NCBI GenBank assembly: GCA_015222065.1
Contig: JADFUQ010000311.1
Location: forward strand, 1-54,939
Reading direction: 5' to 3'
DNA from: Bacteroidota bacterium
GTDB taxonomy: Bacteria > Bacteroidota > Bacteroidia > Bacteroidales > VadinHA17
DNA length: 54,939 nt
The notes beneath the pieces were generated by a model. The model made no database searches. It was not told the DNA's origin and worked only from the letters and a program-made list of their open reading frames with translations. The translations under genes and the position numbers were made by a program. Below, in pieces: positions 1 through 54,939 of the stretch (position 1 is the stretch's first letter; every line of letters begins with the position of its first letter).

Positions 1-744
1 ATTCGCTGGTACGGCCTCCTGTTTGCTTCCTCCTTTTTCTTTGGTTACCTTATTATGGCCAGGTTTTTCAAAAAAGAAAAAATACCTGAAGAAGTTCTTG
101 ACAGGCTAACTTTATATATGGCGCTTGGTACTATAATCGGAGCCCGTTTTGGACATTGTCTGTTTTATGAACCGGGTTATTATCTCGCTCATCCTTTTGA
201 AATACTCATGGTATGGCATGGCGGACTTGCAAGTCACGGTGCCGGAATAGGTATTCTTATCGCGTTATATCTGTTTGCAAAAAAGTCGAAAAAATCTTAC
301 TTGTGGACTCTTGACAGGATAGTTATTGTAGTAGCTCTTTCGGGTTTCTTTATCAGAACCGGAAACCTGATGAATTCTGAAATATACGGTGTTGAAACTA
401 ATCTCCCCTGGGGTTTTGTTTTCCTAAGGAACGGAGAAACAGTACCAAAACACCCAACACAGATATATGAAGCACTTGCGTATCTGCTTGTCTTTATTCT
501 CCTTTACTTCATATATAAAAGAAATCAAGGTGTATTTAAATCCGGATTATTATTCAGTTTGTTCATGATATTGGTTTTTACTTTCAGGTTTTTTGTTGAA
601 TTTATTAAAAACAACCAGGTAGCTTTTGAGTCGGGGATGACATTAAATATGGGTCAGTGGCTAAGCATTCCTTTTGTTCTGTTTGGTATTATTCTGCTCA
701 TTTTTGTACTTAAAAAACCAATGCCTGAAAAACGAAACATTTAG
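1..744 (+). CDS. lgt: prolipoprotein diacylglyceryl transferase (5' end outside window)
   Basis: Frame 1 is open from nt 1 (IRWYGLLFASSFFFGYLIMARFF...), so the ORF-track Met at 55 is internal. Polytopic membrane protein with Lgt-like motifs HGGLASHG, GNLMNSEIYG, HPTQIYE. Confidence 0.9.
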   Translation: MRWYGLLFASSFFFGYLIMARFFKKEKIPEEVLDRLTLYMALGTIIGARFGHCLFYEPGYYLAHPFEILMVWHGGLASHGAGIGILIALYLFAKKSKKSYLWTLDRIVIVVALSGFFIRTGNLMNSEIYGVETNLPWGFVFLRNGETVPKHPTQIYEALAYLLVFILLYFIYKRNQGVFKSGLLFSLFMILVFTFRFFVEFIKNNQVAFESGMTLNMGQWLSIPFVLFGIILLIFVLKKPMPEKRNI

Positions 745-769
745 CTTAAGCCGATAATTTAACCTATAC

Positions 770-790
770 AAAAAACCAGGAATTGTCCTG
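770..790 (-). terminator. weak intrinsic terminator, minus-strand orientation
   Basis: On the minus strand: CAGGA-CAAT-TCCTG followed by G-TTTTTT-G. On the plus strand the run is A6 upstream of the stem, so it does not serve lgt. Confidence 0.35.
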
Positions 791-940
791 TGTAATACAT
801 TTATTGTAACTAATCAGTCTACAGACGTCAGTAGGCAGTCCTAAAAAACCTTCAAATTACAGAGGATTTATTAACTTAGAACTTTCTAACCGGTTTTAAA
901 TGAGCAGTTCCGAAAAATCAATCTGATATACCGTATTGTC
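770..940 (-). ncRNA. candidate small transcript (promoter-like box to terminator-like hairpin), no ORF
   Basis: Minus-strand TACTTTTG (-7-type box, 945-952) lies about 165 nt upstream of the minus-strand hairpin+T6 at 770-790. No ATG-initiated ORF longer than about 13 codons lies between them. Purely structural inference. Confidence 0.2.
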
Positions 941-1018
941 AAGGCAAAAGTATAATATGATGATAATATATACAATATACAATATCACCTGTATGTTTAT
1001 CGTTGACATGACACTCGC
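939..1018. repeat. conserved non-coding element, copy 1 (second copy at 41241-41336)
   Basis: tcaaggcaaaa..gtataatatgatgataatat..caatat.caata..gtttatcgttgacatgacact aligns with 41241-41336. Blocks of 20 nt with 1 mismatch and 21 nt with 2 mismatches. Confidence 0.7.
945..952 (-). promoter_or_regulatory. Bacteroidota-type -7 box (TAnnTTTG) on minus strand
   Basis: Plus strand caaaagta = minus strand TACTTTTG. Confidence 0.3.
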
Positions 1019-1037
1019 TTTAAAAGGAACAGGTTGG

Positions 1038-1084
1038 TTTTTCAGCTTCCTCCCTTCATGGCAGGGATAAATGAAGCTGAAAAA
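1038..1084. repeat. long perfect-stem hairpin / inverted repeat
   Basis: tttttcagcttc (1038-1049) and gaagctgaaaaa (1073-1084) form a perfect 12-bp inverted repeat, with an inner CCCT/AGGG pair. Confidence 0.7.
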
Positions 1085-1120
1085 TTTCAATCCGTCAAAG
1101 TAGAATTAAGTTTAAATAAA

Positions 1121-1128
1121 TATATTTG
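1121..1128 (+). promoter_or_regulatory. Bacteroidota-type -7 box (TAnnTTTG)
   Basis: TATATTTG lies 29 nt upstream of the ATG at 1157. Confidence 0.4.
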
Positions 1129-1156
1129 CATTAAACTGATTTAATATCAAGTAATA

Positions 1157-2395: not shown

Positions 2396-3685
2396 ATGAA
2401 AATAGGATTTATTATTGGTCGAATTGGCGGGGTTGACGGTGTAGCACTTGAAGCAGAAAAATGGATCCAGGTATTTAAAAAAATGGGGCATGAAATTTTT
2501 ATTATTTCCGGTCAGTTTCAGGATTGGAAAATTGATCGCACACATGATACCCTGGTTCCAGAAATGTCATTCTTTTCGCCTGAAAGTTACTGGGGGCAAA
2601 AAAAGGCGTTTTTTCATCCGGATACTAACACTACAGATTTAATGGAGCATGTTGCTCTATACTCCAGAATTATCTCTGACAAGATTATAAAATGGGCAAT
2701 CAGTAATAAAATTGATCTTCTTATCTCCGAAAACGCTTCTGCTCTTCCATCCCATCTTGAAATGGGCATGGGAATTAAACTGGCTGTTGAAACCCTGGGT
2801 CTTCCTACAATTACACATGATCATGATTTTGCCTGGGAAAGAGGTGACAGATATATTTCTCCACACAAAGAAATTAATAAGTTCGTTGAAAAAGCATTTC
2901 CCCTGAGGCTTCCTAACACATATCATGCTGTTATTAATTTAAACGCGCAAAAAACTCTTAAAGAAAAATATAACAGAAATTCTGTGGTTGTTCCTAATGT
3001 AATGGATTTTAATGTTCCGTTCGGGGAAAAAACCTCAAAAAACAAAAATTTGCGGGCCGATCTGGGTCTTGAAGAAGATGATCTTTTGCTTTTTCAAATA
3101 ACACGTATTGTTAAGAGAAAAGGAATTGAAGTTGCAATTAAGCTTATTGACAAACTTGATAATAAAAAAATTAAACTTGTTATTACCGGAAATTATAAAG
3201 ATGATGAGGGTAGTATATACTATAATATGCTTGTCAATCTGATCCACGAATTGAAAGTAAGCAGACAGATTATTTTTGCTTCTCATATTATACACAATAA
3301 GGGTCTTTCAGGAGACGGAAGTGATACACGCTATTCACTATCCGATGCTTATGCAAATACAACTGCCTGTACATATTTCAGTACTTACGAGGGTTTTGGT
3401 AATGCTTTTATTGAAGCAGTTCTGGCAAAACGTCCCATTTTTGTTAATAATTACAAGCCCGTTTACTGGCCTGATATCGGTAGTAAGGGATTTAAAGCAG
3501 TAATGCTTGAAGATAATGTACTTACCGATGATGCTGTTGAGCAAATGAGAGAGGTAATAATTAATAAAACACTAAACCACGAAATTGCTGAATTTAATTA
3601 TGCTCTTGGAAAAAAGCACTTTTCTTACGAGACACTTGAACAAAAATTGGAGGAGTTGCTTGATATAGCTACCGGCAAGAAGTAA
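2396..3685 (+). CDS. GT4-family (GT-B fold) glycosyltransferase
   Basis: 429 aa. E-x7-E motif (YEGFGNAFIEA), HDHDFAWERGDRY motif, and N-terminal KIGFIIGRIGGVDGVALEAEKW. Paralogous to the N-terminal part of the 1398-aa protein at 4918-9114. Confidence 0.8.
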   Translation: MKIGFIIGRIGGVDGVALEAEKWIQVFKKMGHEIFIISGQFQDWKIDRTHDTLVPEMSFFSPESYWGQKKAFFHPDTNTTDLMEHVALYSRIISDKIIKWAISNKIDLLISENASALPSHLEMGMGIKLAVETLGLPTITHDHDFAWERGDRYISPHKEINKFVEKAFPLRLPNTYHAVINLNAQKTLKEKYNRNSVVVPNVMDFNVPFGEKTSKNKNLRADLGLEEDDLLLFQITRIVKRKGIEVAIKLIDKLDNKKIKLVITGNYKDDEGSIYYNMLVNLIHELKVSRQIIFASHIIHNKGLSGDGSDTRYSLSDAYANTTACTYFSTYEGFGNAFIEAVLAKRPIFVNNYKPVYWPDIGSKGFKAVMLEDNVLTDDAVEQMREVIINKTLNHEIAEFNYALGKKHFSYETLEQKLEELLDIATGKK

Positions 3686-3735
3686 GAAGCAGGTAGTAGG
3701 AAGTAAGTAGTAAAGTAGGAAAGTAAGAAGTTTTG
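3677..3735. repeat. C-poor word array (GTAAGAAG/GTAGTAGG words)
   Basis: 59 nt with a single C (3690). Overlaps the stop codon of the GT4 gene. Confidence 0.8.
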
Positions 3736-3751
3736 CCTTTATTCTTCTCCC

Positions 3752-4876
3752 TTACATCATTAATTCAGAGATGATGTTATCCGCTATCAATTTACCCTGG
3801 TCTGTGAGTATTAGGTTATCCTTGTTTTTCTTAATCATTCCATAATCAATAAATCTTTTCGAAAGCCCTATGCAATAATCCATTGCTTCTTTACTGTAGT
3901 TTTCTTCAAGGAATTTAAGATCAATACCCCACATTGTCCTCAATGATGTTAATATATATTCATTATATTTTTTCCTGTTATTCAGGTATTCTTTTTCAAA
4001 TGGAATTTTGTTTTTGCTAATAGAATACATATACATTTTATTGTCTGCAACATTCCACCGGCGTATTTTTCCGTTATATGAGTGAGCAGATGGTCCTAAT
4101 CCAAGATATTTTACCTGTTTCCAGTAATTTGTGTTATGTTTTGAAAAAAAACCATCCAGGCAAAAATTTGAAATTTCATAATGAAGAAATTTGTTTTCTC
4201 CGGCTTTTTTTATCAAAACTCTGAATTGATCAATACTGGTATCTTCTTCCTGTATTTTCATACGTCCTTCTTTTATATACCGTGAAAAAACCGTGTCAGG
4301 TTCTATTGTAAGATGGTAAGCCGAAATATGGTTGATTTCCATTTGAAAAGCAACATCAAGATTGTTCTCCCATGTTTCCATGCTCATTCCCGGAATTCCG
4401 TATATCAGATCTACGCTAATGTTTTCAAAGCCTGCATCTTTACTATCGTACACAGCTTTTATTCCTGTTTTACTTTGGTGCCTTCTGTTCAATAATCTAA
4501 GTTCCCGGTCAGAGAATGATTGCAATCCTATACTTAACCTGTTTATACCTGTTTTTACTAATTTCTTCAAATACTGTTTTGTCAGGTCATCAGGATTTGC
4601 TTCGAAAGTAATTTCTGCATCTTTTGATATTTTGAAATACTTGTAAAGACCTTCAAATATTATCATTATTTCCTCATAATCAAGAACAGACGGGGTTCCT
4701 CCACCAAAATAGATTGTTTCAACCTGTTCGGATTCAAGAAATCCTTTTTCCAGCTCCATCTCTTTCACCAGAGCTTTTATCATTCTACCTTTATCTTCCA
4801 GTCTTAATGATTTGTAAAAATCACAATAATGGCAGAGTTTCTTACAAAAGGGAATATGTATGTAAATACCGGCCAT
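3752..4876 (-). CDS. hemW: radical SAM heme chaperone / coproporphyrinogen III oxidase-like protein
   Basis: 374 aa. N-terminal CxxxCxxC (IPFCKKLCHYCDF) and HemN/HemW-type length and C-terminal domain. Starts 41 nt downstream of the preceding gene, so probably co-transcribed. Confidence 0.85.
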   Translation of the reverse strand: MAGIYIHIPFCKKLCHYCDFYKSLRLEDKGRMIKALVKEMELEKGFLESEQVETIYFGGGTPSVLDYEEIMIIFEGLYKYFKISKDAEITFEANPDDLTKQYLKKLVKTGINRLSIGLQSFSDRELRLLNRRHQSKTGIKAVYDSKDAGFENISVDLIYGIPGMSMETWENNLDVAFQMEINHISAYHLTIEPDTVFSRYIKEGRMKIQEEDTSIDQFRVLIKKAGENKFLHYEISNFCLDGFFSKHNTNYWKQVKYLGLGPSAHSYNGKIRRWNVADNKMYMYSISKNKIPFEKEYLNNRKKYNEYILTSLRTMWGIDLKFLEENYSKEAMDYCIGLSKRFIDYGMIKKNKDNLILTDQGKLIADNIISELMM

Positions 4877-4898
4877 TGTGTTAATGCTATTTATGTTT

Positions 4899-4949
4899 CA
4901 TCCATTCCACCATTCCATTATTCCACCATTCTATTCTTCTTATCTTCCA
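4899..4949. repeat. G-poor ATTCC/CCATT word array
   Basis: catccattccaccattccattattccaccattctattcttcttatcttcc. Spans the 4918-4920 stop and encodes the last residues (LEDKKNRMVE) of the 1398-aa ORF. Confidence 0.8.
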
Positions 4950-9114: not shown

Positions 9115-9180
9115 AAAGCTATATCTTCATTTTATAACAGTGAAATATGGCATGCATTTTACATTCTTCTAAAGAGTTAC

Positions 9181-9205
9181 TGGTTAATGGTTAATGGTTA
9201 ATGGG
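9181..9205. repeat. GGTTAAT heptamer x3 tandem array
   Basis: tggttaatggttaatggttaatggg. TAA recurs every 7 nt, so it falls in all three frames. Confidence 0.85.
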
Positions 9206-9240
9206 TTGACAGGTACTGGTACCGGTCTTTTAACCTTGAA

Positions 9241-9290
9241 TTCTTAATTCTTCCTTACTCAACTACTCACTTTACTCACCCTACTTAACT
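9241..9290. repeat. G-poor word array (CTTACTC/CTACTCAC words)
   Basis: ttcttaattcttccttactcaactactcactttactcaccctacttaac, upstream of the VanZ-like gene. Confidence 0.8.
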
Positions 9291-9396
9291 ATAAATACTG
9301 ATTAGTTACTAAATATAGGAATTTATCAGCTAATATTTTGTTTTGTTTGTTTTTTTAGCTTTGTGTTGTTTATTTATTCTGTTAATTTTTTATTCA

Positions 9397-10392: not shown

Positions 10393-10496
10393 AACTTTTT
10401 ACTTCATACTTCTTACTTCTTCACTCATCTCTTCTTTTTCCTCCTTACTCATCTACTCAACTTACTTAACTTTAGTTCACTTTAGGCACTTTTAAC
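10393..10496. repeat. G-poor word array (CTTCTTAC/CTCATC/CACTTTAG words)
   Basis: 10393-10474 (82 nt) contains no G. Confidence 0.8.
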
Positions 10497-16570: not shown

Positions 16571-16686
16571 GTAGGCAGTCCACAGTCGGCAGTCGGCAAT
16601 CTGGAGACCACGCTCTTCTTATTTACTCATCACATCTTTGACTTTTTGACCCTTCGGCTTTTGACCTTTTTTATTCTTCCTTCTGT
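16571..16686. repeat. GGCAGTC word array followed by G-poor array (TTTGAC/CTTCTT words)
   Basis: gtaggcagtccacagtcggcagtcggcaat, then ctcttcttatttactcatcacatctttgactttttgacccttcggcttttgacc. Related words occur at 831-841, 20852-20877 and 32563-32590 (rc). Confidence 0.75.
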
Positions 16687-16701
16687 TTATCACCTGCCTT
16701 T

Positions 16702-17742
16702 TTATATAGAGGAGTGAAACTGACTGAGAAAACGGACATCATTTTCAAAGTATAAACGAAGATCGTTCACTTTATACTTAAGTTGGGCAATTCTTTCAAC
16801 CCCCATACCAAAAGCAAAACCGGTATATTTCTTACTGTCTATGTTGCAATTCTCTAAAACATTGGGGTCAACCATTCCACAACCAAGAATCTCAACCCAA
16901 CCGGTATGTTTACAGACAGCACAACCCTTGCCACCACATATTAGGCATGAAACATCCATTTCTCCAGAGGGCTCCGTGAAGGGGAAGTAAGATGGTCTTA
17001 AACGGATTTTAATGTCTTGACCGAACATTTCCTTTGCGAAATAAAATAGTGTCTGTTTAAGATCAGCAAAAGAGACATTGGTGTCAATATATAAACCCTC
17101 AACCTGGTGAAAAATACAATGTGCCCTTGCACTTATTGCTTCATTGCGAAAAACCCTGCCGGGAGAAATTGTCCTGATTGGTGGTTTTGAATTTTCCATA
17201 TCCCTGACCTGAACAGATGAAGTGTGAGTTCGAAGTAATATATCAAGATTTTTACTGTTTTCAAATTCTTCTTTTTCTATAAAAAAAGTGTCCTGCATAT
17301 CACGGGCCGGATGTTCGGGGGGAAAATTTAATTTTGAAAAAACATGGTTATCATCTTCAATTTCAGGACCTTCGGAAATTATAAAACCAATACGGGTAAA
17401 AATATATACTATATTATTTCTTACAATAGATATGGGATGACGGGAACCAAAAGAAAAAGAATCTCCGGGAAGAGTTAAATCGGTATTTGATACTGAATAG
17501 GATTTTTGCTCAAGGATAGTCTTGAAGTAACTGACCTTTTCAATAGTTAAATTTTTAAGATCGTTTATAAGTTTTCCGTATTCACGTTTTTGATCAGCAG
17601 AAACAGATGAAAAATCAGAAAAGAGAAGAGAAAGAAAACCTTTTTTCCCGAGAAACCGAACCCTGAAATTTTCAAGATCATTAATATTATCAGTAGTAAA
17701 ACTATTAACCTCTGATTTTAATTTGTTTATTCTTTCCAGCAT
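16702..17742 (-). CDS. pheS: phenylalanine--tRNA ligase alpha subunit
   Basis: 346 aa. HPARDMQDTF, FRNEA and GFAFGMGVERIA are class II aaRS PheS motifs. Confidence 0.95.
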   Translation of the reverse strand: MLERINKLKSEVNSFTTDNINDLENFRVRFLGKKGFLSLLFSDFSSVSADQKREYGKLINDLKNLTIEKVSYFKTILEQKSYSVSNTDLTLPGDSFSFGSRHPISIVRNNIVYIFTRIGFIISEGPEIEDDNHVFSKLNFPPEHPARDMQDTFFIEKEEFENSKNLDILLRTHTSSVQVRDMENSKPPIRTISPGRVFRNEAISARAHCIFHQVEGLYIDTNVSFADLKQTLFYFAKEMFGQDIKIRLRPSYFPFTEPSGEMDVSCLICGGKGCAVCKHTGWVEILGCGMVDPNVLENCNIDSKKYTGFAFGMGVERIAQLKYKVNDLRLYFENDVRFLSQFHSSI

Positions 17743-18674: not shown

Positions 18675-20150
18675 TTGGAGCAAATACGCAAACTGGCCGG
18701 ACAAACTGCTATTTATGGTTTAGGGACAATTGTTCCCAGGTTTCTGAACTATGCTCTTCTAACGCCTTTTTATACAAGGATATTTGACACGGGAGAATAT
18801 GGCATAGTAACAGAGCTATATGCATATATGGTGGTTTTGCTGGTTATTCTGACCTATGGAATGGAGACAGGATATTTCAGATTTGCTTCAAAGGAAAATC
18901 AACCGGAAAAAGTTTATAGTACAGCCCTGGGATCTATACTGATGACATCTTCATTATTCATTTTGGCAATAATCCTGTTTAACCAGCAGATTGCTGATGT
19001 AATGAAATATTCTGATAATAAAGAATATATTTTGTTATTTTCATTGATAATATCAATAGATGCATGTACTGCAATCCCCTTTGCAAAACTAAGAAGAGAA
19101 GAAAGGGGTTTTAAATTTGCTTTGATAAAAATTATTAATGTTGTTGTAATTATTGGATTGGCATTATTTTTCTATGTGTTGGCTCCAAAAATATATTCGA
19201 AAGACCCAAATGGTATAATAAATTTGATCTATTCACCGGAGGTGGGCGTTGGTTATGTATTTATAGCAAATCTGGCGGGTAGTATAGTAACAATTATACT
19301 ACTGTTACCTGAAATTACAGGTATTAGAATAAGAATAGATAAGGTACTATGGAAAAAAATGATAAAATACAGCTATCCATTGCTAATTGCAGGATTGGCT
19401 GGAACAATAAATGATGTTGTGGATAAAATGGTTTTGAAACACCTGTTAACAGACCAAAATACAGCAATGAGTCAACTTGGTATATACGGTGCAAATTATA
19501 AAATTGGAGTAATAATGGCATTGTTTATACAAATGTTCCGGTATGCTTTTGAACCATTTGCTTTTGCAAATTCTAATGATAAAAATGCAAGAGAGATATA
19601 TGCTGTAGTAATGAAGTATTTCATATTGTTTGGATTGTTTATTTTCCTTGGGGTTATGTTTTATCTGGATGTTATTGTAAAATTATTACTGGGAAAGAAT
19701 TTTATAGTGAGCGAGGCACTGAAAGTGGTACCAATAATTTTAATAGGGTATTTACTTTATGGAGTTTTCGTAAATCTTTCAGTATGGTATAAGGTAAATG
19801 AACTAACAAAATATGGTGCAATTATTACTGGAGTTGGTGCATTAATTACGGTGGTTATAAATGTAAGCCTGGTGCCTGTTTTTGGATACCATGCTTCTGC
19901 ATGGGCACATATTGTATGTTATCTGACAATGGTTATAATGTCTTATTATATTGGTAGAAGATTTTATAAAATACCTTATGAAACAGTTAGAATTATAATA
20001 TATTTTGTGTTTGGATTGGCACTGTATTGGATTTCTAAAATAGTAAAGACAGATATTGAAATTATTAATCTAATTATTAATACGGGGTTTTTAATATTGT
20101 TTGTTGTTGTTGTTTCATGGAAAGAAAAAATAAAATGGAAAGTAAGTTAA
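18675..20150 (+). CDS. oligosaccharide/polysaccharide flippase family (MOP/Wzx-like) membrane protein
   Basis: 491 aa and about 12-14 TM helices. The N-terminus LAGQTAIYGLGTIVPRFLNYALLTP is typical of this family. TTG start. Confidence 0.75.
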   Translation: MEQIRKLAGQTAIYGLGTIVPRFLNYALLTPFYTRIFDTGEYGIVTELYAYMVVLLVILTYGMETGYFRFASKENQPEKVYSTALGSILMTSSLFILAIILFNQQIADVMKYSDNKEYILLFSLIISIDACTAIPFAKLRREERGFKFALIKIINVVVIIGLALFFYVLAPKIYSKDPNGIINLIYSPEVGVGYVFIANLAGSIVTIILLLPEITGIRIRIDKVLWKKMIKYSYPLLIAGLAGTINDVVDKMVLKHLLTDQNTAMSQLGIYGANYKIGVIMALFIQMFRYAFEPFAFANSNDKNAREIYAVVMKYFILFGLFIFLGVMFYLDVIVKLLLGKNFIVSEALKVVPIILIGYLLYGVFVNLSVWYKVNELTKYGAIITGVGALITVVINVSLVPVFGYHASAWAHIVCYLTMVIMSYYIGRRFYKIPYETVRIIIYFVFGLALYWISKIVKTDIEIINLIINTGFLILFVVVVSWKEKIKWKVS

Positions 20151-20276
20151 GAAAGGAGGAGAAGAAGAGGTGAGAGGTGAGTGAAGAAGTAAGAAGTAGG
20201 GAGTAAAGAGGAGAAGAAGTCGAAGAGTCAAAGGATTAGAGGGTAGAAGAGGGAAGAGGAATGAAAAGAGGGGGTG
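20151..20276. repeat. C-poor word array (GAAGAAG/GGTGAG/GTAAGAAG words)
   Basis: 126 nt with only 2 C (20221, 20229). Confidence 0.85.
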
Positions 20277-20280
20277 CGAA

Positions 20281-20310: not shown

Positions 20311-20382
20311 CATTAAACATATTAACGTTTAAGTATTCCAAACCCGAGGCACTGAATAGTAATTAATAATAAAACGAAACGA

Positions 20383-34527: not shown

Positions 34528-34665
34528 CTTCTCCTCTTCGCCCCTGTTTCCTTTTCGACTCTTTGACTTTCTTTCTTCACCTCATTTTCTCATCTCTTCA
34601 TCTCCTCATTACTTCATCACCTCATTACCTCATCACCTCATTCACTCATTCACTCATCCTTCAAC
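34528..34665. repeat. G-poor word array (CTCATC/CACCTCATT/CACTCATT words)
   Basis: 34566-34665 (100 nt) contains no G. Confidence 0.85.
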
Positions 34666-34746
34666 GTTTATCCTTCCAATAAACCTGGGATTCTCATAAG
34701 AATAATTAATTTGATAACGGTCGTTGTTTTAGAATTATCATATGTA

Positions 34747-35092: not shown

Positions 35093-35563
35093 ATGACTAT
35101 AGTACGTGTTACAAAAGAATTCCATTTTGAAATGGCCCATGCTTTATGGAATTATGACGGACCATGCAGAAATATCCACGGGCATTCATACAAATTACTG
35201 GTAACCGTAAAGGGCGAACCGTTAAATGATCCGGGCAAACCCAAACATGGAATGATAATTGACTTTGGCGACCTGAAACAAATAGTAAAAACCACAATTA
35301 TAAACAGGTTTGATCATACAGTTGTTGTTAATAAACAAGCACCATATGAAATGCTAAAGAAAATGGGGCAAATGTTTGAAAAATATGAGGTAATGGATTT
35401 CCAGCCAACCTGTGAGAAACTTGTTATATATTTCGCCGAAATTATTAAAGAAAAATTACCCGAAAACACACAGCTTCAGCGACTTAGATTGTATGAAACG
35501 ACAACATCATTTGCAGAATGGTATGAGGAGGATAATGCAAGTAAAGATAAAAGTCAAAAGTAA
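35093..35563 (+). CDS. queD: 6-carboxytetrahydropterin synthase (6-pyruvoyl-tetrahydropterin synthase family)
   Basis: 156 aa. FEMAHAL, CRNIHGHSY. The last ~8 codons (SKDKSQK) are encoded by the AAAGATAAAAG word array. Confidence 0.85.
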   Translation: MTIVRVTKEFHFEMAHALWNYDGPCRNIHGHSYKLLVTVKGEPLNDPGKPKHGMIIDFGDLKQIVKTTIINRFDHTVVVNKQAPYEMLKKMGQMFEKYEVMDFQPTCEKLVIYFAEIIKEKLPENTQLQRLRLYETTTSFAEWYEEDNASKDKSQK

Positions 35564-35645
35564 AAAGATAAAAGTAAAAAGATAAAAGGGAAGAAGTAAG
35601 AAGAGGTGGGTGGGTAGTAAGAAGTAGGTAGTAAGTAGAAGAAAA
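35539..35645. repeat. C-poor word array (AAAGATAAAAG then GTAAGAAG words)
   Basis: aagtaaagataaaagtcaaaagtaaaaagataaaagtaaaaagataaaagggaagaagtaagaagaggtgggtgggtagtaagaagtaggtagtaagtagaag. The same AAAGATAAAAG words occur at 54881-54939. Confidence 0.85.
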
Positions 35646-35702
35646 GGCAAAAGCTTGCCACGTGAAATGCGACTTAGGAGCATATTTCACTGTGGGCAAA
35701 AG
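35646..35702. repeat. REP-like GTGAAAT/ATTTCAC hairpin element (short form, inverted relative to 15901-15998)
   Basis: ggcaaaagcttgccacgtgaaatgcgacttaggagcatatttcactgtgggcaaaag. Confidence 0.75.
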
Positions 35703-35775
35703 TGAAGAATGAAGAGTTCAAAGACCTTAACTCGTAACCCGTAACACTTATTCACTGCAACACTGCATCACAATT
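35703..35775. repeat. composite word module GAAGAATGAAGAGTTCAAAG - CTCGTAACCCGTAAC - CACTGCA(T/A)CAC
   Basis: The same word order occurs at 20221-20312 and 23031-23114, and partly at 30465-30550. Confidence 0.75.
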
Positions 35776-35794
35776 CTTATTAAGACAAAAGACA

Positions 35795-40344: not shown

Positions 40345-40423
40345 ATGTTTATTATTTAGCAATATTTTTATTTTCAATAGTAAGTATTTTTGGAATACTG
40401 GAATGCTCGATAAAGTCATCTAT

Positions 40424-40467
40424 TTCTTCCCATTTTTCCACTATTCCATTATTCCATTATTCCAATT
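40424..40467. repeat. G-poor ATTCC/CCATT word array
   Basis: ttcttcccatttttccactattccattattccattattccaatt. Confidence 0.8.
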
Positions 40468-40572
40468 AATACTTAATCATTCTCCTGTGGATCAAAATTT
40501 TTATCATGGATGTTTCATCTGTTTGAAATTTGTTTTATATCTGTTTATTTCAAAACGGAGCAAAGATAGAAA

Positions 40573-44276: not shown

Positions 44277-45686
44277 TCAAATGTTTACCATCTTTCCACG
44301 TGCCAGGGAAGCAAAAATTCCACCTGTGCAAAGAAAGGTGAATATTAGAAATGAAATTTTCATTGCCTGCATAAAATCATCAAAATGATCCGGATTGATT
44401 TCAACTCTCCCCAGGAACAATGAAAACAGCATCATGGCTATACCCATGCTGAACATCTGTCCTACCATTCGCATAGTGCCAACTGATCCGGATGCAATAC
44501 CATAATATTTTCGTTCTACAGAGCTCATAATAGCGTTGGTGTTCGGAGAGGAAAAAAGGGCATAACCCATACCCAGTAAAACAAGGATTAACAAAAGAAC
44601 TGTAACAGATGTATTTTTATTAATAAACGTAAGCATAAACAAACCAAAAGCAGAGGCAGTCATTCCGGCAGATGCAAGAATTCTGGGTTGTATTTTGTCA
44701 GAGAGTTTACCGGTAAGAGGCGAGAAAACAGCCATAATCAATGGCTGGGCAACTAGTATAAAACCTGCTTCACGTGGCTGCAATCCTTTGATATACTGTA
44801 AATAGAGACTCAGCATAAAACCGACACCAAATGTAGCACTATAATGAATCAGAGCTGAAAGATTGGAGTAAGCAAAAACCCGGCTTCTGCTTAATAGTCT
44901 CATTTCAAATAATGGGTCTTCAGTACGAAATTCGTACCAGCCAAATAACAAAACAATTAATAATCCTGCTGAAATAAAAACATATCCGGTCCATCCGGGA
45001 AACTTTGAAAAGCCGTACATAATTGAGCATAAACCAAGTCCGTATAAAATCATTCCACGGACATCAAACTTTTCTCCTTTGGCATCCGACCATTCACCTT
45101 TTAACCGGTTTATTGTTATCCACAGGGTAATAAGTCCAAGAGGTACCATGATAAGAAAGATACTGCGCCATGAAAAATACTGGGTAAGAAGACCACCTAT
45201 TGTGGGACCGGCAGAAAGACCTGTATATACTGAAGCAACATTTATCCCCAGTGCCTTTCCCCGCTCTCCGGGAGGATATACAGATGTCAGAATGGCTACA
45301 GCAGTGCCAAATATCATTGCACTGCCCATTCCTTGTAATACCCTGAATGTAATTAATAAACCGGTATTGACAGAAATACCGCAAGCCAATGAGGAAATGG
45401 TAAAGCAAATGATGCCGTATGTAAAAATTTTTTTTCGACCGATGATATCACCAATACGCCCGAAAGGAAGGAGAAAAATTGCTGTAGTAAGGATATATGC
45501 ACTTGCAATCCAGTTAATTGAAATAGCGTCAGCATTAAAATCTTTTCCAATTGACGGTAGAGCAACATTTAATGCCGATCCCATAAAAGGAGTGAGAAAC
45601 GCGGCAAAAGTTGCAACAAATAATGCAGTTCTTCTCGCAATATTTTCCGGCTGCTTATGTACCTGTTTTTTCGGTAGATTCACCAT
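44277..45686 (-). CDS. MFS transporter, 14-TMS DHA2 (EmrB/QacA)-like
   Basis: 469 aa. GRIGDIIGRKKIF motif and about 14 hydrophobic segments. Confidence 0.85.
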   Translation of the reverse strand: MVNLPKKQVHKQPENIARRTALFVATFAAFLTPFMGSALNVALPSIGKDFNADAISINWIASAYILTTAIFLLPFGRIGDIIGRKKIFTYGIICFTISSLACGISVNTGLLITFRVLQGMGSAMIFGTAVAILTSVYPPGERGKALGINVASVYTGLSAGPTIGGLLTQYFSWRSIFLIMVPLGLITLWITINRLKGEWSDAKGEKFDVRGMILYGLGLCSIMYGFSKFPGWTGYVFISAGLLIVLLFGWYEFRTEDPLFEMRLLSRSRVFAYSNLSALIHYSATFGVGFMLSLYLQYIKGLQPREAGFILVAQPLIMAVFSPLTGKLSDKIQPRILASAGMTASAFGLFMLTFINKNTSVTVLLLILVLLGMGYALFSSPNTNAIMSSVERKYYGIASGSVGTMRMVGQMFSMGIAMMLFSLFLGRVEINPDHFDDFMQAMKISFLIFTFLCTGGIFASLARGKMVNI

Positions 45687-45795
45687 TTATTCATCTTTAA
45701 TAACTTTAGCCCCTTAACTTTAATTCACTTTAGTCACTCTTAATTTTAAACACATTAAACTTCTTCTCTTCCCAACTTTAGTCACTTATAACTTC
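45687..45795. repeat. G-poor array (CTTTAG/CTTAA words)
   Basis: 109 nt with 3 G, each inside a CTTTAG word. Confidence 0.75.
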
Positions 45796-46251
45796 TTAAA
45801 TATCTTTATTTTTTGAGTCGATAATAATAGTTACAGGACCATTATTGACCAGTGAGACCTGCATCAACGCCCCGAATTCACCTGTTTTTATTTTCTTCTC
45901 CAGGTAAAAGCCAAGTTTTTCTACAAATTTCTCATATAAAGGAATAGCAACATCCGGTCTGGCTGCTTTAATATAAGATGGCCTGTTTCCCTTTTTTGTT
46001 TTTGCATGAAGCGTAAACTGACTGATGACAAGTATCTCGTCATTAACATCAGCAACAGATAAATTCATTACACCATCTTTATCATCGAATATCCTTAACT
46101 GGATAATTTTTTTGCAAAGCCAGTTAATATCCTCTTCACCATCATCATTTTCAATACCAAGAAAAACAAGCAATCCTTGTCCGACAGAAGAATGGATTTT
46201 GTTCCGGATTTCAACGGTAGCACATTTAACTCTTTGTATTACAACACGCAT
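45796..46251 (-). CDS. dtd: D-aminoacyl-tRNA deacylase
   Basis: 151 aa. MRVVIQRV, SQFTL, NNGPVT. Confidence 0.92.
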   Translation of the reverse strand: MRVVIQRVKCATVEIRNKIHSSVGQGLLVFLGIENDDGEEDINWLCKKIIQLRIFDDKDGVMNLSVADVNDEILVISQFTLHAKTKKGNRPSYIKAARPDVAIPLYEKFVEKLGFYLEKKIKTGEFGALMQVSLVNNGPVTIIIDSKNKDI

Positions 46252-46503: not shown

Positions 46504-47559
46504 ATGAGCAACGAAAAATTTAGTTTACAGAAATTTATTGAGGATTCAAAAAGCGCTATTTTGAATCCCAAAGAGCATTTTACTACACTAAGTACTACTG
46601 GTGGCTTTGGCGAACCGGTAATTAAAGCAGTTATTTATGGGTTTATCGCCGGTGTTTTTGCTTTATTATGGAGTTTACTTAATATATCTGGCGGATTAGG
46701 GTTTGGGGGTTTATTTGGCGGAGCTGTTGGCATAATGGCTTTTATAGGTTCAATTATAGGTGCCCTTATTGGTCTGTTTTTAGGAGGAGTTATTGTTTTA
46801 ATTATTTCTGCTATTTGTAATGGATCAAATGATTATGAAGCAAATGTAAGAGTAGTAGCTGCGATGATGGTTCTTGCACCTATTAATGCTTTTTTGAATG
46901 TCTTTAATGGTATAAGTCCGGCACTTGGGGGTATAATTGGACTGATAGTAAACCTTTATGGGTTATGGATGCTATACCATGCACTTAACCAAACACTGAA
47001 GGCAAAAGAGGAAACGTCAAAAATAATTGCATTAGTTTTAGGGGCTTTAGTTTTGTTATTTGCAATTATTGGCTTTGGTACCCGAAAGAAATTGAATAAT
47101 TTGGGAAAAAGGTTTGGAGATTATGAAAATATCTCAAAAGAATATGAAAAAGCAGCAAAAAAAATGGCAGAAAACTATGAGGAAATAGCAAAAGAAATAG
47201 TAGAAAAAACTGAAGAAATGACAGATGAAATAACAGAAGCGTATGGAGATACTGAAGTGGATTATAAATTTGAAATGGCAAACGGGGAAACGGTGAAAAA
47301 AATTAATTCTATTTCAGTAACCATGGCATTGAAAAGCCTTGATGAAGACAATAACTTTGCAATACTCAGTAAAGGAGATTCATTTGTGCAAACTGCTATA
47401 GGAGAAGAGGGCTACATTGTTGAATACAGAGATGATTCGGGTTATTTCAGGAGTGTAGAAACGAATATAACTTATGAAAAGGCTGTAATTATGTTCATTG
47501 GATTTCTCAATGAAGATGATTCATGGAAAGAAATAACAGAATGGGAAACGGCGGAATGA
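46504..47559 (+). CDS. Yip1-domain membrane protein with extra acidic linker and C-terminal soluble domain
   Basis: 351 aa. The N-terminal ~195 aa form a 5-TM Yip1/DUF1282-like region. They are followed by an acidic helical linker and a ~100-aa globular tail (FVQTAIGEEGYIVEYRDDSGYF...). Confidence 0.65.
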   Translation: MSNEKFSLQKFIEDSKSAILNPKEHFTTLSTTGGFGEPVIKAVIYGFIAGVFALLWSLLNISGGLGFGGLFGGAVGIMAFIGSIIGALIGLFLGGVIVLIISAICNGSNDYEANVRVVAAMMVLAPINAFLNVFNGISPALGGIIGLIVNLYGLWMLYHALNQTLKAKEETSKIIALVLGALVLLFAIIGFGTRKKLNNLGKRFGDYENISKEYEKAAKKMAENYEEIAKEIVEKTEEMTDEITEAYGDTEVDYKFEMANGETVKKINSISVTMALKSLDEDNNFAILSKGDSFVQTAIGEEGYIVEYRDDSGYFRSVETNITYEKAVIMFIGFLNEDDSWKEITEWETAE

Positions 47560-47626
47560 TGGAATAGTGGAATGATGGAAGAATGGAAGAATGGGAAGAG
47601 TGAAGAATGTGATGCAGAATGGAGAA
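47539..47626. repeat. C-poor GGAAT word array
   Basis: gaatgggaaacggcggaatgatggaatagtggaatgatggaagaatggaagaatgggaagagtgaagaatgtgatgcagaatggag. Overlaps the last codons and the stop of the Yip1 gene. Confidence 0.85.
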
Positions 47627-47710
47627 CAAAGGATTCCATGAAACCATAGTTAACTTATGACTTTTAACATATAACGTATAACTCTTTGGAACAATGGGTA
47701 ATGGGATGCT

Positions 47711-47745
47711 GGATTCTCCAGTATTCCATAATTCCAGTATTCCAA
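47711..47745. repeat. G-poor ATTCC word array (complementary arm)
   Basis: ggattctccagtattccataattccagtattccaa. Confidence 0.75.
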
Positions 47746-47790
47746 AATAACTAAGTATTATCCTAAAAAACCATACTAATTATAGTCCGG

Positions 47791-52318: not shown

Positions 52319-52353
52319 TATAGGTACATTTCGCGATTTAATTGAAACTTTTA

Positions 52354-53037
52354 TTAATGTTTAATCCTGTTTATCCACTTTAGTGCCTCTCTTTTGCTTA
52401 AAGGGGAGAGAGTAGTTGAATCAACAAATTCCGATACCCAGACAGGATTTGTTTTTGAATATTCCCGTAACACCCATCCTATTGCCTTACGGATAAAAAA
52501 TTCTTTTGAATCATGGCATTTAAGTATGTTTTGTTCAAGCAATTTTGTATCAAGATCATTTTTATACATAAGTTGAAACAACAGGGCGGTCCTGTTAAGC
52601 CATATATTTTCAGACGAGATCCATTTTTTGTTCATTTGTTCGATCAATCCGGGAAAGTTAAACAAGTGTTTGCCAACAAGATTAGCAGCAATAAAATCAA
52701 CAGTATCCCACCAGGATTTGTTAATGACAAGATATTCAAAAAGATGAATATCATTCTGAGCCATTTTTTTCAGCTCTTTTCCAATTAGTTCCATTGCAAA
52801 ATACTGAAATTCTCGTTCATCCATATCCCACAATTTCCTAACAATATTTTCAATGTTATTTACATCCGGCCGGTTATAGTTTTTAAAAAAAGAACTTGTT
52901 ATAGCCCTACGTTCAGGCGACTTTATACCCAGGAAGCTGAATTTATCCTTCATATACTTTTTCATGAAAAAAGCATTTTCGGGATTTGCATTTTCACGGT
53001 ATATATTTTCCAGAGCCGGTAAATTAAAACTTTCCAT
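52354..53037 (-). CDS. DNA alkylation repair protein (AlkD/AlkC-type HEAT-like repeat family)
   Basis: 227 aa. WWDTVD and FFIRKAIGWVLREYSK are typical of this family. Confidence 0.8.
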   Translation of the reverse strand: MESFNLPALENIYRENANPENAFFMKKYMKDKFSFLGIKSPERRAITSSFFKNYNRPDVNNIENIVRKLWDMDEREFQYFAMELIGKELKKMAQNDIHLFEYLVINKSWWDTVDFIAANLVGKHLFNFPGLIEQMNKKWISSENIWLNRTALLFQLMYKNDLDTKLLEQNILKCHDSKEFFIRKAIGWVLREYSKTNPVWVSEFVDSTTLSPLSKREALKWINRIKH

Positions 53038-53080
53038 AGTATGTTATTTATAGTTCTTCAGGATAATGCGTAGTTATTCT

Positions 53081-53122
53081 GGAACATTGGAAAACTGGAA
53101 TGTTGGAATAATGGAATAATGT
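53081..53122. repeat. C-poor GGAAT word array
   Basis: ggaacattggaaaactggaatgttggaataatggaataatgt. Confidence 0.8.
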
Positions 53123-53222
53123 AACATAAGTTTAAACGTAGGAATTCACCATTAATCCTTTTTAAGTTGTTAGAATGTATCATCCCAATTACTCTCATTC
53201 ATTTTCTTTTTGTGCTATTTTG

Positions 53223-53359
53223 TTCCTCTATTCCACTCTTCCATATTTCCATTATTCCACTCTTCGAATTCTAAACTTTTAAACTCTTCGACTTCTTCAC
53301 TCTTCCATCCTTCCAATATTCCACCATTCCATCATTCCACTCTTCTATATCTTTCATCT
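53223..53359. repeat. G-poor ATTCC/CTCTTC word array (complementary arm)
   Basis: 137 nt with 2 G. ccattattcc (53249-53258) is the exact complement of ggaataatgg (53105-53114). Confidence 0.85.
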
Positions 53360-53419
53360 GACACCTATTCATTTTCCGGATGAACCTTTTTTATTAATTA
53401 ACTCAAGTTCCATTTAAAA

Positions 53420-54841
53420 TTAAATAGAAGTTTCCTGAGCTGTCTTTTTTATCCTTTCCCAGGCATTTTTAACATGTTTTTCGGTTACATATGTTTGCGA
53501 AACAACCATTCTGATGACAAAATTACCTTTAATTTTTGTATGGGTAAGGTACAATTTCCCCGATTTGTTAAGTTTGTTGAGAAGCGTTTCATTTAAATTA
53601 TTCAGATCTTGTGATTTAATGGTATTATTGGGATTAAATCTAAAACAGACCGTATTTAATGTAACCGGTGCCATCAATTCAAAAAATCTTTCTTCTTCAA
53701 TACTCTTTTTCAGCCATTGAGCCAAAGAAACATGAAACCGGATTTTTTCCTGTAATCCTTTTACGCCGAAACTCCGGATAACGAACCATAATTTCAGCCC
53801 CCTGAATCTTCGTCCGAGAGGGACCCCCCAGTCGCGGTAATCATTTACTTTACCCCTGGTTTTTGTTTTCAAATATTCAGGAAGTATTTCAAATGTTTTC
53901 AGTAGTGTTTCTTTCTCTTTAACGAAATAGGCTGAACAGTCGAAATTGGTAAACATCCATTTATGCGGGTTAAAAACAAAACTGTCTGCCTGTTCAATAC
54001 CGTCAATCATCCACCGGAATTCAGGAAGTAACAAAGCTGTTCCTGCAAGTGCAGCATCAACATGAAGCCAGAGATTATGTGCTTTACATATCCGACTTAC
54101 CTCTTTCATGGGGTCAATAGCAGTTGTGCCTGTTGTTCCAATGGTGGCCACAACACACATCGGGTGATACCCTTTTTTAAGATCATTCATAACAGACAGT
54201 TCCAATTTTTCCTGATCAATTCTTAATTTATCATCAGTCTCTACTTTAACAAGGTTTTCTTTTCCAAGTCCGGCAATTTTTACTGCCTTCTCAATTGACG
54301 AATGGGCTTCGGTGGAGCAATATACCCTCAATCTGTTTTCTTTTCTTAAACCGGCTTTATTTACCCTGTAGCGGGTTGTTTTTTCCCGGGCAGTAAGCAG
54401 GGCTGCCAGTGTTGAGGCAGAGGCAGTATCCTGAATAACACCTTCAAAAAATGCTGGCAGCCCGATCATTTCTTTGAGCCAGTTCATTACTCTTTCCTCA
54501 AGCTCTGCCGCAGCAGGTGATGTTTCCCAAATCATACATTGAGCACCGATTGTTGCAGTTAACATTTCTGCCAACACTGACGGATAGCTTGAATTTGCAG
54601 GGAAATAGGCAAAAAAATTGGGACTTTGCCAATGAGTAATTCCGGGCATAACAATTTGCTCAAAATCCTTCATTATTTCGTACATAGATTCACCTGCCTG
54701 TGGTGGTTTACCAGGAAGATTATTGTAAATATCTCCCGGTAGAACATTGGATTTTACAGGATAAGCGTCAACTTTTTCCAGGTAATCAGCCATCCAGTCG
54801 GCAAATTCATGAGCATGTTTTCTGAATTCTTTTACATCCAT
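53420..54841 (-). CDS. PLP-dependent aromatic-L-amino-acid / tyrosine decarboxylase family (group II)
   Basis: PLP-lysine motif SFVFNPHKWMF and N-terminal FRKHAHEFADWMADYLE. ATG at 54841 (MDVKEF) is preferred over the TTG at 54880. Confidence 0.85.
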   Translation of the reverse strand: MDVKEFRKHAHEFADWMADYLEKVDAYPVKSNVLPGDIYNNLPGKPPQAGESMYEIMKDFEQIVMPGITHWQSPNFFAYFPANSSYPSVLAEMLTATIGAQCMIWETSPAAAELEERVMNWLKEMIGLPAFFEGVIQDTASASTLAALLTAREKTTRYRVNKAGLRKENRLRVYCSTEAHSSIEKAVKIAGLGKENLVKVETDDKLRIDQEKLELSVMNDLKKGYHPMCVVATIGTTGTTAIDPMKEVSRICKAHNLWLHVDAALAGTALLLPEFRWMIDGIEQADSFVFNPHKWMFTNFDCSAYFVKEKETLLKTFEILPEYLKTKTRGKVNDYRDWGVPLGRRFRGLKLWFVIRSFGVKGLQEKIRFHVSLAQWLKKSIEEERFFELMAPVTLNTVCFRFNPNNTIKSQDLNNLNETLLNKLNKSGKLYLTHTKIKGNFVIRMVVSQTYVTEKHVKNAWERIKKTAQETSI

Positions 54842-54880
54842 AATAAGTAATTTTTTATTGTATTTATGGAATGGATACAA

Positions 54881-54939
54881 GATAAAAAGATAAAAGTAAA
54901 AAGATAAAAGTAAAAAGATAAGTAAAGAGATAAAAGTAA
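54881..54939. repeat. C-poor AAAGATAAAAG word array (runs off window)
   Basis: gataaaaagataaaagtaaaaagataaaagtaaaaagataagtaaagagataaaagtaa. Same words as 35545-35590. Confidence 0.8.

Follow-up and report, generated by a model that had tools for sequence, protein, structure and literature searches.

The 54,939-nt contig JADFUQ010000311.1 (the window, that is, the whole stretch of DNA analysed here) comes from the chromosome of an uncultured Bacteroidota lineage and has a G+C content of 33%. About half of its larger intergenic spacers hold arrays of short repeated words in which one strand is purine-rich and nearly free of C. We show that an array abutting a stop codon takes its orientation from that gene: the purine-rich, C-poor strand is nearly always the gene's coding strand. 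What is new in this polarity rule is that it holds for many unrelated repeat units and phyla, with none at the start-codon side. The arrays themselves are probably long simple-sequence repeats (SSRs) with 7-8-nt units, slippage-born and orientation-filtered, that have proliferated in this lineage.

Arrays at stop codons are oriented by the adjacent gene

Each array was oriented by its purine-rich strand and then scored against the gene end it touches. For window arrays no more than 60 nt from a stop codon, purine strand and coding strand coincide in 12 cases and are opposite in three. Two of the three exceptions lie in a 66-nt convergent spacer where both stops are close, and the third is the A-run of the hemD terminator. 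Five stop codons (3683, 4918, 28450, 35561 and 47557) are overlapped or even supplied by arrays. A relaxed tract caller took in plain AT-rich DNA (19/34), and the polarity counts given here follow stricter criteria.

The rule recurs at unlinked loci of the lineage (118 kb from five metagenome-assembled genomes (MAGs), retrieved via a repeat resembling a miniature inverted-repeat transposable element (MITE)). Tract makes up 12% of the intergenic DNA of these loci, and their stop-adjacent arrays are purine-coding 7:0. Of 60 genes there, 13 have a purine share of 70% or more in the 40 nt past the stop codon, and none has a share of 30% or less. For the window together with the homologous loci of three related MAGs (L001, L002 and L004), the corresponding figures are 29 and 1 of 71 genes, and for other Bacteroidota 4 and 3 of 184. 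General purine loading of 3' flanks was considered and rejected, as other Bacteroidota have 40 purine-rich versus 37 pyrimidine-rich flanks.

Beyond the lineage, an exact search for (GAAGTAA)2.5 returned at least 120 loci. The matches listed come from Cyanobacteria, Bacteroidota, Gemmatimonadota, Planctomycetota, Verrucomicrobiota, Chloroflexota, the Candidate Phyla Radiation (CPR), Bacillota and Proteobacteria. Among these listed matches, 102 of 121 arrays lie outside long open reading frames (ORFs) and 58 of 76 are closer to their 5' neighbour. The seed arrays among them are purine-coding 28:5 at 0-30 nt past a stop and 26:0 where they overlap it. The 178 other period-7 or period-8 arrays at the listed loci, taken without selection on composition, give 28:5 past the stop and 33:4 overlapping it. 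The coding strand is purine-rich in 59 of the 63 stop-overlapping arrays among the matches listed, and the polarity total for the listed loci is 111:14 (Cyanobacteria 20:1, Bacteroidota 26:4, other phyla 65:9). The same set shows this bias with equal strength between tandem genes (75:6) and between convergent genes (18:1). Start-adjacent arrays are without polarity, both among the matches listed (12:11) and at the unlinked lineage loci (3:2).

The base-depleted tracts are tandem repeats

A preliminary description of this DNA, made from the sequence alone, had read the spacers as arrays of degenerate 7-9-nt words almost lacking one base. The base counts it quoted are reproduced on recount: 2 C in 20151-20276, 1 C in 3677-3735, 0 G in both 34566-34665 and 10393-10474, 2 G in 53223-53359 and 3 G in 45687-45795. 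Only 32586-32676 differs, with 1 C and not 0, because base 32586 is a C; positions 32587-32676 form a C-free run of 90 nt. The longest C-free run of the window is 104 nt and the longest G-free run 100 nt.

With a tract defined by depletion of one base, at least 25% of the complementary base and a score of at least 28, we detected 1587 nt in 20 tracts among 8532 intergenic nt (~19%). The depletion exceeds that of pooled dinucleotide-preserving shuffles (215±100 nt, maximum 595) and also that of per-spacer shuffles (645±153 nt, maximum 1127). The tract share in the window is 14.6% of intergenic DNA versus 4.2% of coding DNA. The spacers do hold non-random, base-depleted arrays, but only about 20 of the 39 spacers of at least 30 nt have a tract, and others, for example 2072-2395, 18611-18827, 20818-21192 and 46252-46503, are tract-free. 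Specific words recur far above expectation. The word GAAGAAGTAAGAAG has seven matches with at most one mismatch (0.02 expected). The word CTCGTAACCCGTAAC, with six matches at up to two mismatches (0 expected), is common to the 20279-20345 arm, 23079-23114, 35731 and 15844.

The words are degenerate as described, and they are more exactly head-to-tail tandem repeats of period 7 or 8. Tandem Repeats Finder (TRF) identified 55 non-redundant intergenic arrays (17 of period 7, 10 of period 8, and 10 of period 14-16 or 21), with 66-100% matches between copies. Repeat units include AAGAAGT, AGAGGTG, GGAAATGA, GGAATAAT, GTTAATG, AAAAGTA, TCACCTCA, CACTGCAT and GTAACCC. The arrays have head-to-tail units within the 5-11-nt range of long SSRs, are longer than chance and are mainly intergenic, as long SSRs are. 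They are predicted to be unstructured, with a minimum free energy (MFE) of about -3 kcal per 100 nt versus -11 to -13 in coding and array-free intergenic controls.

Such arrays are not confined to this contig, since the same kind occurs at homologous spacers in four independently assembled MAGs. An assembly artefact is ruled out by these homologous arrays and by identical heptamer arrays in the isolate genomes of Calothrix parasitica NIES-267, Chitinophaga japonensis DSM 13484, Niastella vici and Shewanella atlantica. The window and three relatives at about 90% identity (L001-L003) have 4.2-5.2 arrays per kb of intergenic DNA, the 79% relative (L004) has 1.0, and 29 other Bacteroidota loci have 0-1.95. 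Tracts occupy 15-28% of intergenic DNA in the window, L001 and L002, 8% in L004 and close to none in most other loci. Tract matches in L006, L009, L012, L013 and L017 were rejected, as these tracts are not word arrays.

Arm order follows from the stop-codon rule

Seven spacers of the window have two arms (at 3686, 9115, 20151, 30242, 35564, 47560 and 53038), and in all of them a C-poor arm precedes a G-poor arm on the plus strand, as had been noticed before. The layout had also been called fixed. This is correct for the two-arm spacers of the window; elsewhere it is a tendency, with 46 spacers in purine-then-pyrimidine order and 14 in the reverse order among the matches listed. Divergent spacers, which have no stops, show the purine-first order 4:2 among the same matches. 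Most array-bearing spacers have only a single arm.

Both the base depletion and the purine-then-pyrimidine order on both strands arise because of the stop-codon orientation bias. In a convergent spacer, the second arm on the plus strand is there because the other gene adds its own purine arm. In a tandem spacer the stop-side slot is held by a purine array, and therefore an array of the opposite type necessarily lies further downstream. The description of the second arm as G-poor holds for the order of the arms and less for their degree of depletion: second arms are far less depleted (4 G in the 30 nt of 20281-20310, 4 G in the 45 nt of 35731-35775 and 4 G in the 35 nt of 47711-47745) and contain mixed-base words such as CGTAACC and CACTGCAT.

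Arrays turn over rapidly between close relatives

The nearest genomes are uncultured "Bacteroidota bacterium" MAGs in which the gene order of the window is conserved. MnmG is 90-91% identical in CSMAG_2868, CSMAG_1436 and CSMAG_2487, 79% in B79T3L11 and at most 69% elsewhere. At the nucleotide level, the genes of the window are 86-92% identical to those of L001 and L002 and 83% to those of L003. Array-free spacers have an identity of 0.88-0.96 between the window and L001 or L002, whereas array-bearing spacers fall to 0.27-0.64 and have very different lengths. Copy number and sequence of the arrays thus change rapidly between close relatives.

The tract at the 3' end of mnmG is retained in five genomes, but its words and length vary (alignment A1; L002, L003 and L004 differ). 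The words are of the GAAGTAAG type in the window and L001 and GGCAGAA in L003, and the L002 array is 100 nt of AAAGTTG and GAAGAA types. The spacer between the adenine deaminase gene (ade) and uvrC measures 349 nt in the window and 349-391 nt across the window, L001 and L002, but only 116 nt in L004 and 12 nt in L005. A 159-nt array (34528-34686) is absent from the homologous spacers of L001, L002 and L004, which measure 340, 335 and 158 nt versus 590 nt in the window. At the 6-pyruvoyl-tetrahydropterin synthase (PTPS) gene, the array at 35540-35563 has invaded the 3' end. The protein ends in ..EEDNASKDKSQK before its stop in the window versus ..EEDNK in L001 and L002, and is seven residues longer through the array. 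Judged from these alignments, the turnover is the behaviour of what would be hypermutable, unconstrained DNA expanded in one lineage.

Possible origins of the arrays and of their polarity

We consider it probable that the arrays are slippage-born SSRs whose orientation has been filtered. They would arise and be remodelled by replication slippage, local duplication or conversion, and deletion, would fill free DNA at transcription-unit boundaries, and would hold no sequence-level information. The bias would then probably reflect selection on a transcribed, hypermutable 3' flank. A C-free array would end translation within ~21-24 nt in any frame, despite expansion, contraction or invasion of the gene end. 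The earlier suggestion that the purine arm stops translation in all frames is indeed true, though largely automatic, because stop codons contain no C. A C-free array would also be unable to fold, which would leave 3' untranslated regions (UTRs) structure-free and unable to load Rho, and the antisense RNAs of the arrays, G-free and C-rich, could load Rho; both are likely side effects.

Several observations weigh against this explanation. The same words occur at many spacers (GAAGAAGTAAGAAG at 7 sites versus 0.02 expected; 84% identity over 61 nt), which implies dispersal by recombination or mobile modules, or convergent word selection, beyond local slippage. The arrays frequently adjoin MITE-like and hairpin modules. 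These patterns show that dispersal by recombination or mobile modules probably contributes as well. Stop-richness and purine-richness are confounded: among the matches listed, the coding strand is the stop-richer strand in 118 arrays and the stop-poorer in 26, and even where the two strands have equal numbers of stops, 12 arrays are purine-coding and 3 pyrimidine-coding. Polarity is also present in arrays strictly past the stop (28:5 among the matches listed). Finally, the lineage sample comprises only ~230 kb, and gene calls outside the window are ORF-based.

One alternative, to which we assign a low probability, is a widespread selected 3'-end module, a structure-free, C-free and stop-rich tail that makes gene ends robust to slippage and read-through. 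Polarity is about 90% consistent in Bacteroidota, Cyanobacteria, CPR, Planctomycetota, Bacillota and Proteobacteria and across many unit families among the matches listed. If such a module existed, its G-free complement would block antisense or convergent transcription in lineages that bear Rho and are poor in intrinsic terminators.

A bidirectional Rho-dependent terminator or insulator, in which the G-free, C/U-rich strand loads Rho on read-through and antisense transcripts after the purine arm has uncoupled the ribosomes, had been suggested before and is in our view unlikely. A Rho utilization (rut) site is a stretch of some 70 nt or more of unstructured RNA that is rich in C and poor in G. 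The complement of the purine arm, which contains 25-44% C and 0-3% G and is predicted to have a structure energy close to 0, has textbook rut composition, and only this G-free strand has it. Classical terminators are scarce, as had been claimed: hairpin-plus-T hits are at chance level (11, 15 and 16 versus 10.6, 9.4 and 9.7 in shuffles), and the sole convincing one is at 41384-41368 (-), past hemD. The arrays themselves, with an MFE near 0, are not intrinsic terminators. However, the stop-side arm lacks C on the sense transcript, so Rho could not load there. At most array-bearing gene ends there is no second arm, and second arms are short and weakly G-poor. The absence of the 159-nt array (34528-34686) from close relatives further argues against an essential role. 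To our knowledge, Cyanobacteria lack Rho, and the polarity of 20:1 there among the matches listed means that Rho cannot be the general cause. Nor is the orientation explained by a filter against Rho polarity acting on co-transcribed genes downstream, since convergent spacers (18:1) behave like tandem ones (75:6) in the same set. Rho loading may, on compositional grounds, be a consequence of the arrays in Bacteroidota. Our literature search on Rho-dependent termination and Term-seq in Bacteroides found nothing bearing on these arrays. Sigma-70 promoter scans of the window gave hits at chance level, with a model that is not applicable to Bacteroidota.

The polarity could instead be mutational, with R-loops of purine RNA on its template driving expansion when the purine strand is the non-template strand, a possibility that we rate as rather improbable. 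GAA·TTC repeats elsewhere show transcription- and R-loop-linked instability, and many units here are GAA-like. On both strands of the window the polarity tracks transcription and, among the matches listed, it is found in phyla with different termination machinery. Transcription-linked expansion bias remains a live alternative because equal-stop arrays keep their 12:3 purine-coding bias among the matches listed. Against it, start-adjacent arrays, some of which necessarily lie in 5' UTRs, are without polarity, and the arrays, at 13-28% T, are not pure purine tracts.

It is more doubtful still that the arrays are parts of mobile mosaic elements with a preferred insertion orientation, comparable to bacterial interspersed mosaic elements (BIMEs), BOX elements or MITEs. 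The modules do occur in a constant order (purine words, a hairpin or inverted-repeat module, GTTCAAAG, CGTAACC, CACTGCA(A/T)CAC and pyrimidine words), and identity between dispersed copies is 77-97%. Exact copies of the core of the MITE-like element at 34375-34505 number 20, and the 34528-34686 array and half of this element are present or absent jointly. Yet the arrays are without terminal inverted repeats, fixed ends or constant length, and homologous arrays vary in their words, not in the presence of a defined unit. Among the matches listed, the polarity is also common to unrelated units from unrelated phyla.

We consider it very improbable that the words serve as repeated sites at which an RNA- or DNA-binding protein (such as ribosomal protein S1, a cold-shock protein or an RRM protein) regulates the flanking genes. 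Specific words are common to spacers far above chance, and for TAACTGA repeats located just upstream of start codons, MacGregor suggested proteins of this kind (PMC4679880). However, words are swapped at the same spacer between genomes with 83-92% gene identity, the genes on either side are housekeeping genes unrelated in function, and Rehm et al. found no regulatory role (PMC4692102).

Pairing of the two arms, as RNA into the long imperfect hairpins also raised in the preliminary description or as DNA into cruciforms, can practically be dismissed, as the arms are not specifically complementary: cognate arms are no stabler than non-cognate ones (-4.94 versus -4.60 kcal per 10 nt), in five of the seven two-arm spacers folding gains nothing over arm-shuffled controls (z from -1.1 to +1.5), and array-bearing spacers are mostly single-armed. 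Two GGAAT-family spacers, 47553-47748 (z = -4.7) and 53079-53377 (z = -6.3), are exceptions that fold far better than their controls; this folding is an inverted duplication of one word family and no general design.

Arrays along the window

The arrays are given here with their coordinates and strand. A purine-rich array with units AAGAAGT and AAGTAGGA (3677..3735, +; 1 C in 59 nt, TRF periods 7 and 8, RNA MFE 0) contains the stop codon of a GT1 gene (3683-3685). The next array is purine-rich on the minus strand (3736..3766, -; 0 G on the plus strand) and overlaps the stop (3752) of a convergent radical-SAM gene. The stop codon (4918-4920) of a 1398-aa GT/NAGPA gene lies inside a GGAAT-family array, which reads as 3.8 copies of CCATTCCA on the plus strand (4896..4949, -; 0 G in 54 nt, TRF periods 8 and 16). 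Four copies of GTTAATG (9170..9209, +; TRF period 7, 95% matches, 0 C in 9181-9205) are located 55 nt upstream of the start of a minus-strand GT/NAGPA gene. A G-poor array with CTACTCACC-type words on the plus strand (9226..9299, -; 1 G in 74 nt) occupies a divergent spacer, 97 nt upstream of a VanZ-like gene. The divergent rpiB/nadA spacer, with no adjoining stop, holds an inverted GAAGTAAG-family array (10393..10484, -; 0 G in 10393-10474), with four copies of ACTTCTT and 3.3 of CTTACTCAA on the plus strand, that is 89% complementary to 20173-20210.

At the pheS stop (16702) there are G-poor arrays with 4.4 copies of TTTGACCT on the plus strand (16613..16708, -), and L001 has five copies of CCTCATCA at this site instead. 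The longest purine arm, with units AGAGGTG, AAGAAGT and AGAGGGAAGA (20136..20276, +; 2 C in the 126 nt of 20151-20276), begins at the stop of a polysaccharide flippase gene (20148-20150). It is followed, upstream of dut, by a weakly G-poor second arm of 2.9 copies of AACCCGT and then AACACATTA (20279..20345, -; 4 G in 30 nt), and the flippase-dut spacer measures 232 nt in the window versus 138 nt in L001. The 84% identity over 61 nt mentioned above is between 20154 and 22996 (22996-23056). The latter copy belongs to an array that starts 11 nt past the stop of a TPR gene, where a purine arm is followed by 4.7 copies of GTAACCC at 23082-23114 (22962..23114, +; 1 C in 98 nt, found by TRF). At the stop of an HATPase_c_2 gene (25908-25910) there is a GGTGAGT-type purine arm (25896..25947, +; 0 C) that L001 lacks; L002 has a longer and different array in its place. 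The mnmG stop (28450-28452) lies inside an arm of 5.9 copies of AAGAAGT (28438..28496, +; 0 C).

Past the stop of the adenine deaminase gene, 4.3 copies of AAGAGCA are followed by 2.9 of AAAGTTC (30227..30331, +; found by TRF). The G-poor second arm of this spacer, with two copies of AACTCTTT and 3.5 of CACTGCAT (30483..30586, -; 4 G in 104 nt), ends 4 nt before the uvrC start. Located 99 nt past the uvrC stop, downstream of a weak hairpin with a T-run at ~32450-32481, is a purine arm with 4.2 copies of GGAAATGA and 2.8 of GTGAGAAGAA (32526..32676, +; found by TRF), which includes the 90-nt C-free run 32587-32676. Ten copies of TCACCTCA form the array between divergent genes that close relatives lack (34528..34686, -; G-free on the plus strand, with 0 G in 34566-34665), and a MITE-like inverted-repeat element adjoins it. 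The array of the PTPS gene, a AAAGATAAAAGTA-type and then GAAGTAAG-type purine arm (35540..35647, +; 1 C in 107 nt), begins inside the gene and provides its stop (35561-35563) and last residues. The second arm of that spacer, with two copies of CGTAACC and 2.4 of CACTGCAA (35727..35783, -), is 11 nt upstream of the polA start.

Another GGAAT-family array, 4.4 copies of CCATTATT on the plus strand (40416..40486, -; 0 G in 71 nt), has its purine-rich strand as the coding strand, lies 86 nt past the yidD stop and abuts the start of an S41 protease gene. The entire dtd/MFS spacer is filled by a G-poor array (45678..45814, -; 3 G in 109 nt) that is purine-rich on the coding strand past the dtd stop. 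An arm of 5-6 copies of GGAATGAT (47553..47626, +; 1 C in 74 nt, TRF periods 8 and 16) includes the stop of a Yip1-domain gene (47557-47559), and its words are complementary to those of an array with two copies of TCCAGTATTCCAAAAT (47700..47748, -) that lies 43 nt past the pfk stop (47791). Near the right end, 5.2 copies of TGGAATAA (53079..53124, +) lie ~42 nt upstream of the start of a minus-strand DNA-alkylation-repair gene. Fifteen copies of TTCCACTC on the plus strand (53178..53377, -; 2 G in 137 nt) lie 42 nt past the stop (53420) of a PLP decarboxylase gene, whose coding strand is the purine-rich strand. Upstream of the start of the minus-strand PLP decarboxylase gene, 4.8 copies of GATAAAAGTAAAAA (54874..54939, +; C-free in 54879-54939, found by TRF) reach the end of the window.

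G-free array strands give rise to spurious stop-free ORFs of 57-66 codons, at 10294-10485 (+), 32562-32762 (-) and 53210-53383 (+), which gene callers could list as hypothetical proteins. Such spurious ORFs, altered protein C-termini as in PTPS and, likely, broken assemblies are the practical effects of the arrays.

Neighbouring modules and genomic context

Terminal inverted repeats (GATTTTGCGA...GAAGCAATCT / AGATTGCTTC...TCGCAAAATC) mark the MITE-like element at 34375-34505. L001 carries it at ~4100-4166 and 6590-6730, and L154-L173 carry it as well. Its 33-nt core has 20 exact matches, only in five MAGs of the lineage and in the Ignavibacteria MAG MFD10470 (two copies), the latter suggesting horizontal spread or mis-binning. 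A hairpin module (GGCAAAAGCTTGCC; TTGCCACGTGAAATGC...GCATATTTCACTGTGGGCAA) occurs at 35644-35716 and, inverted, at 15887-16000 (93-97% complementary). It is also present in the PTPS/polA spacer of L004 and is the source of a spurious ORF at 15845-16015. The modules 34375-34505 and 35644-35716 have the features of repetitive extragenic palindromic (REP) sequences, BIMEs or MITEs; the arrays, which have neither inverted-repeat structure nor fixed ends, do not belong to these classes.

An AT-rich, internally palindromic element of ~190 nt has two copies (2161-2316 and 20907-21096), 81% identical directly and 81-83% in inverted-repeat matches. The dut/TPR spacer that houses it is 375 nt long in the window, 118 nt in L001 and 75 nt in L004. 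The mnmG/ade spacer contains perfect palindromes, GTTCCACGTGGAAC, at 28494-28507 and 28576-28589, which are invariant in five genomes. The ~68 nt between them are inverted in the window relative to L001, L002, L003 and L004, and the reverse complement aligns at 82% mean column identity (segments 28494-28589 in the window, 11949-12047 in L001, 4866-4955 in L002 and 2937-2990 in L003). Segment 28494-28589, just upstream of the adenine deaminase gene, is either a candidate invertible switch or an inversion that became fixed between operator-like sites.

The housekeeping genes of the window include lgt, nadA, ruvB, pheS, dut, ybeY, mnmG, uvrC, polA and rnpA as well as yidD, dtd, pfk and ccsBA, and the Bacteroidota-typical domains DUF4292 and DUF4271 are also encoded. 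An Rfam 15 scan of the whole window at the gathering score gave 0 matches, and a tRNA and tmRNA gene scan of the window found none. The region between uvrC and the polyprenyl synthase gene (32427-33220) includes a small LuxR/GerE-type helix-turn-helix ORF (32712-32981); it is ~0.8 kb in the window versus ~2.2 kb in L001 (16158-18324), and its gene content differs.

The coding strand is strongly depleted in C at 10883-13534 and 18828-28452, where genes have 5-11% C and 20-23% G and the 1-kb GC skew is as high as 0.5. On the same strand, C accounts for 13-17% of other genes, and the minus-strand genes at 38.6-54.8 kb are nearly skew-free. The C-depletion is compatible with purine loading on top of replication skew. 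The 624-nt divergent spacer at 10259-10882 (17% G+C) is at the minimum of the cumulative GC skew. A replication origin there was rejected, since a DnaA-box cluster is absent and DnaA-box matches across the window are at chance level.

Comparison with known repeat systems

The short tandemly repeated repetitive (STRR) sequences STRR1-3 of heterocystous cyanobacteria are the heptamers CCCCAGT, TTGGTCA and CAACAGT. The arrays of the window are not members of this group, as their units are AAGAAGT, GGAATAAT, TCACCTCA, GTTAATG and others and their host is a Bacteroidota. As in the STRR and TAACTGA assemblages of Beggiatoaceae, Cyanobacteria and Bacteroidetes, short tandem heptamers fill the spacers. 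MacGregor (2015) described Bacteroidetes spacers that hold assemblages of several heptamers missing from close relatives, and TAACTGA repeats mainly just upstream of start codons in forward orientation (PMC4679880). In the window, the units differ from TAACTGA and the dominant site is just past stop codons.

The G-free strand of the arrays resembles rut sites in being C-rich, G-poor and predicted to be unstructured over 50-160 nt. Unlike in rut sites, it is antisense to the adjacent gene, and the polarity is found in Cyanobacteria as well. As with BIME/REP, BOX and MITE sequences, the spacers are mosaics of recurring modules, with true MITE-like and hairpin modules beside the arrays, but the arrays lack palindromic structure, defined ends and constant length.

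The closest geometry is that of the G-rich heptamers GGGAATC and GGGGA(C/T)T described by Rehm et al. (2015) in Xanthomonas and Nostoc, which lie on the coding strand 0-50 bp past the stop, overlaps included, closest to their 5' neighbour (PMC4692102). Those heptamers are very variable between close relatives, and a function was not found (PMC4692102). The window arrays share this stop-side geometry and hypervariability. The Rehm heptamers are single-motif and G-quadruplex-forming, in contrast to the many families of A/G/T words without G-runs found here.

Mrázek, Guo and Shah (2007), as their work is cited in later papers, found heptanucleotides to be the commonest long SSRs in most prokaryotes and proposed polymerase slippage as their source (PMC4679880, PMC4692102). 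Like the long SSRs so described, the arrays have mostly 7-nt units, are intergenic, have a sporadic phylogenetic distribution and vary between relatives. They differ from that account in the many coexisting unit families, in a period of 8 nearly as common as 7, in their degeneracy (66-100% matches) and in filling ~19% of intergenic DNA. The stop-codon rule leaves a narrower set of possible causes (safety of translation ends, transcription-linked expansion or properties of the 3' end of the mRNA) and makes them testable in cultured array-rich species. The arrays of the window are thus a known kind of repeat, here extreme and multi-family, in a lineage with about one-fifth of its intergenic DNA in heptamer and octamer arrays.

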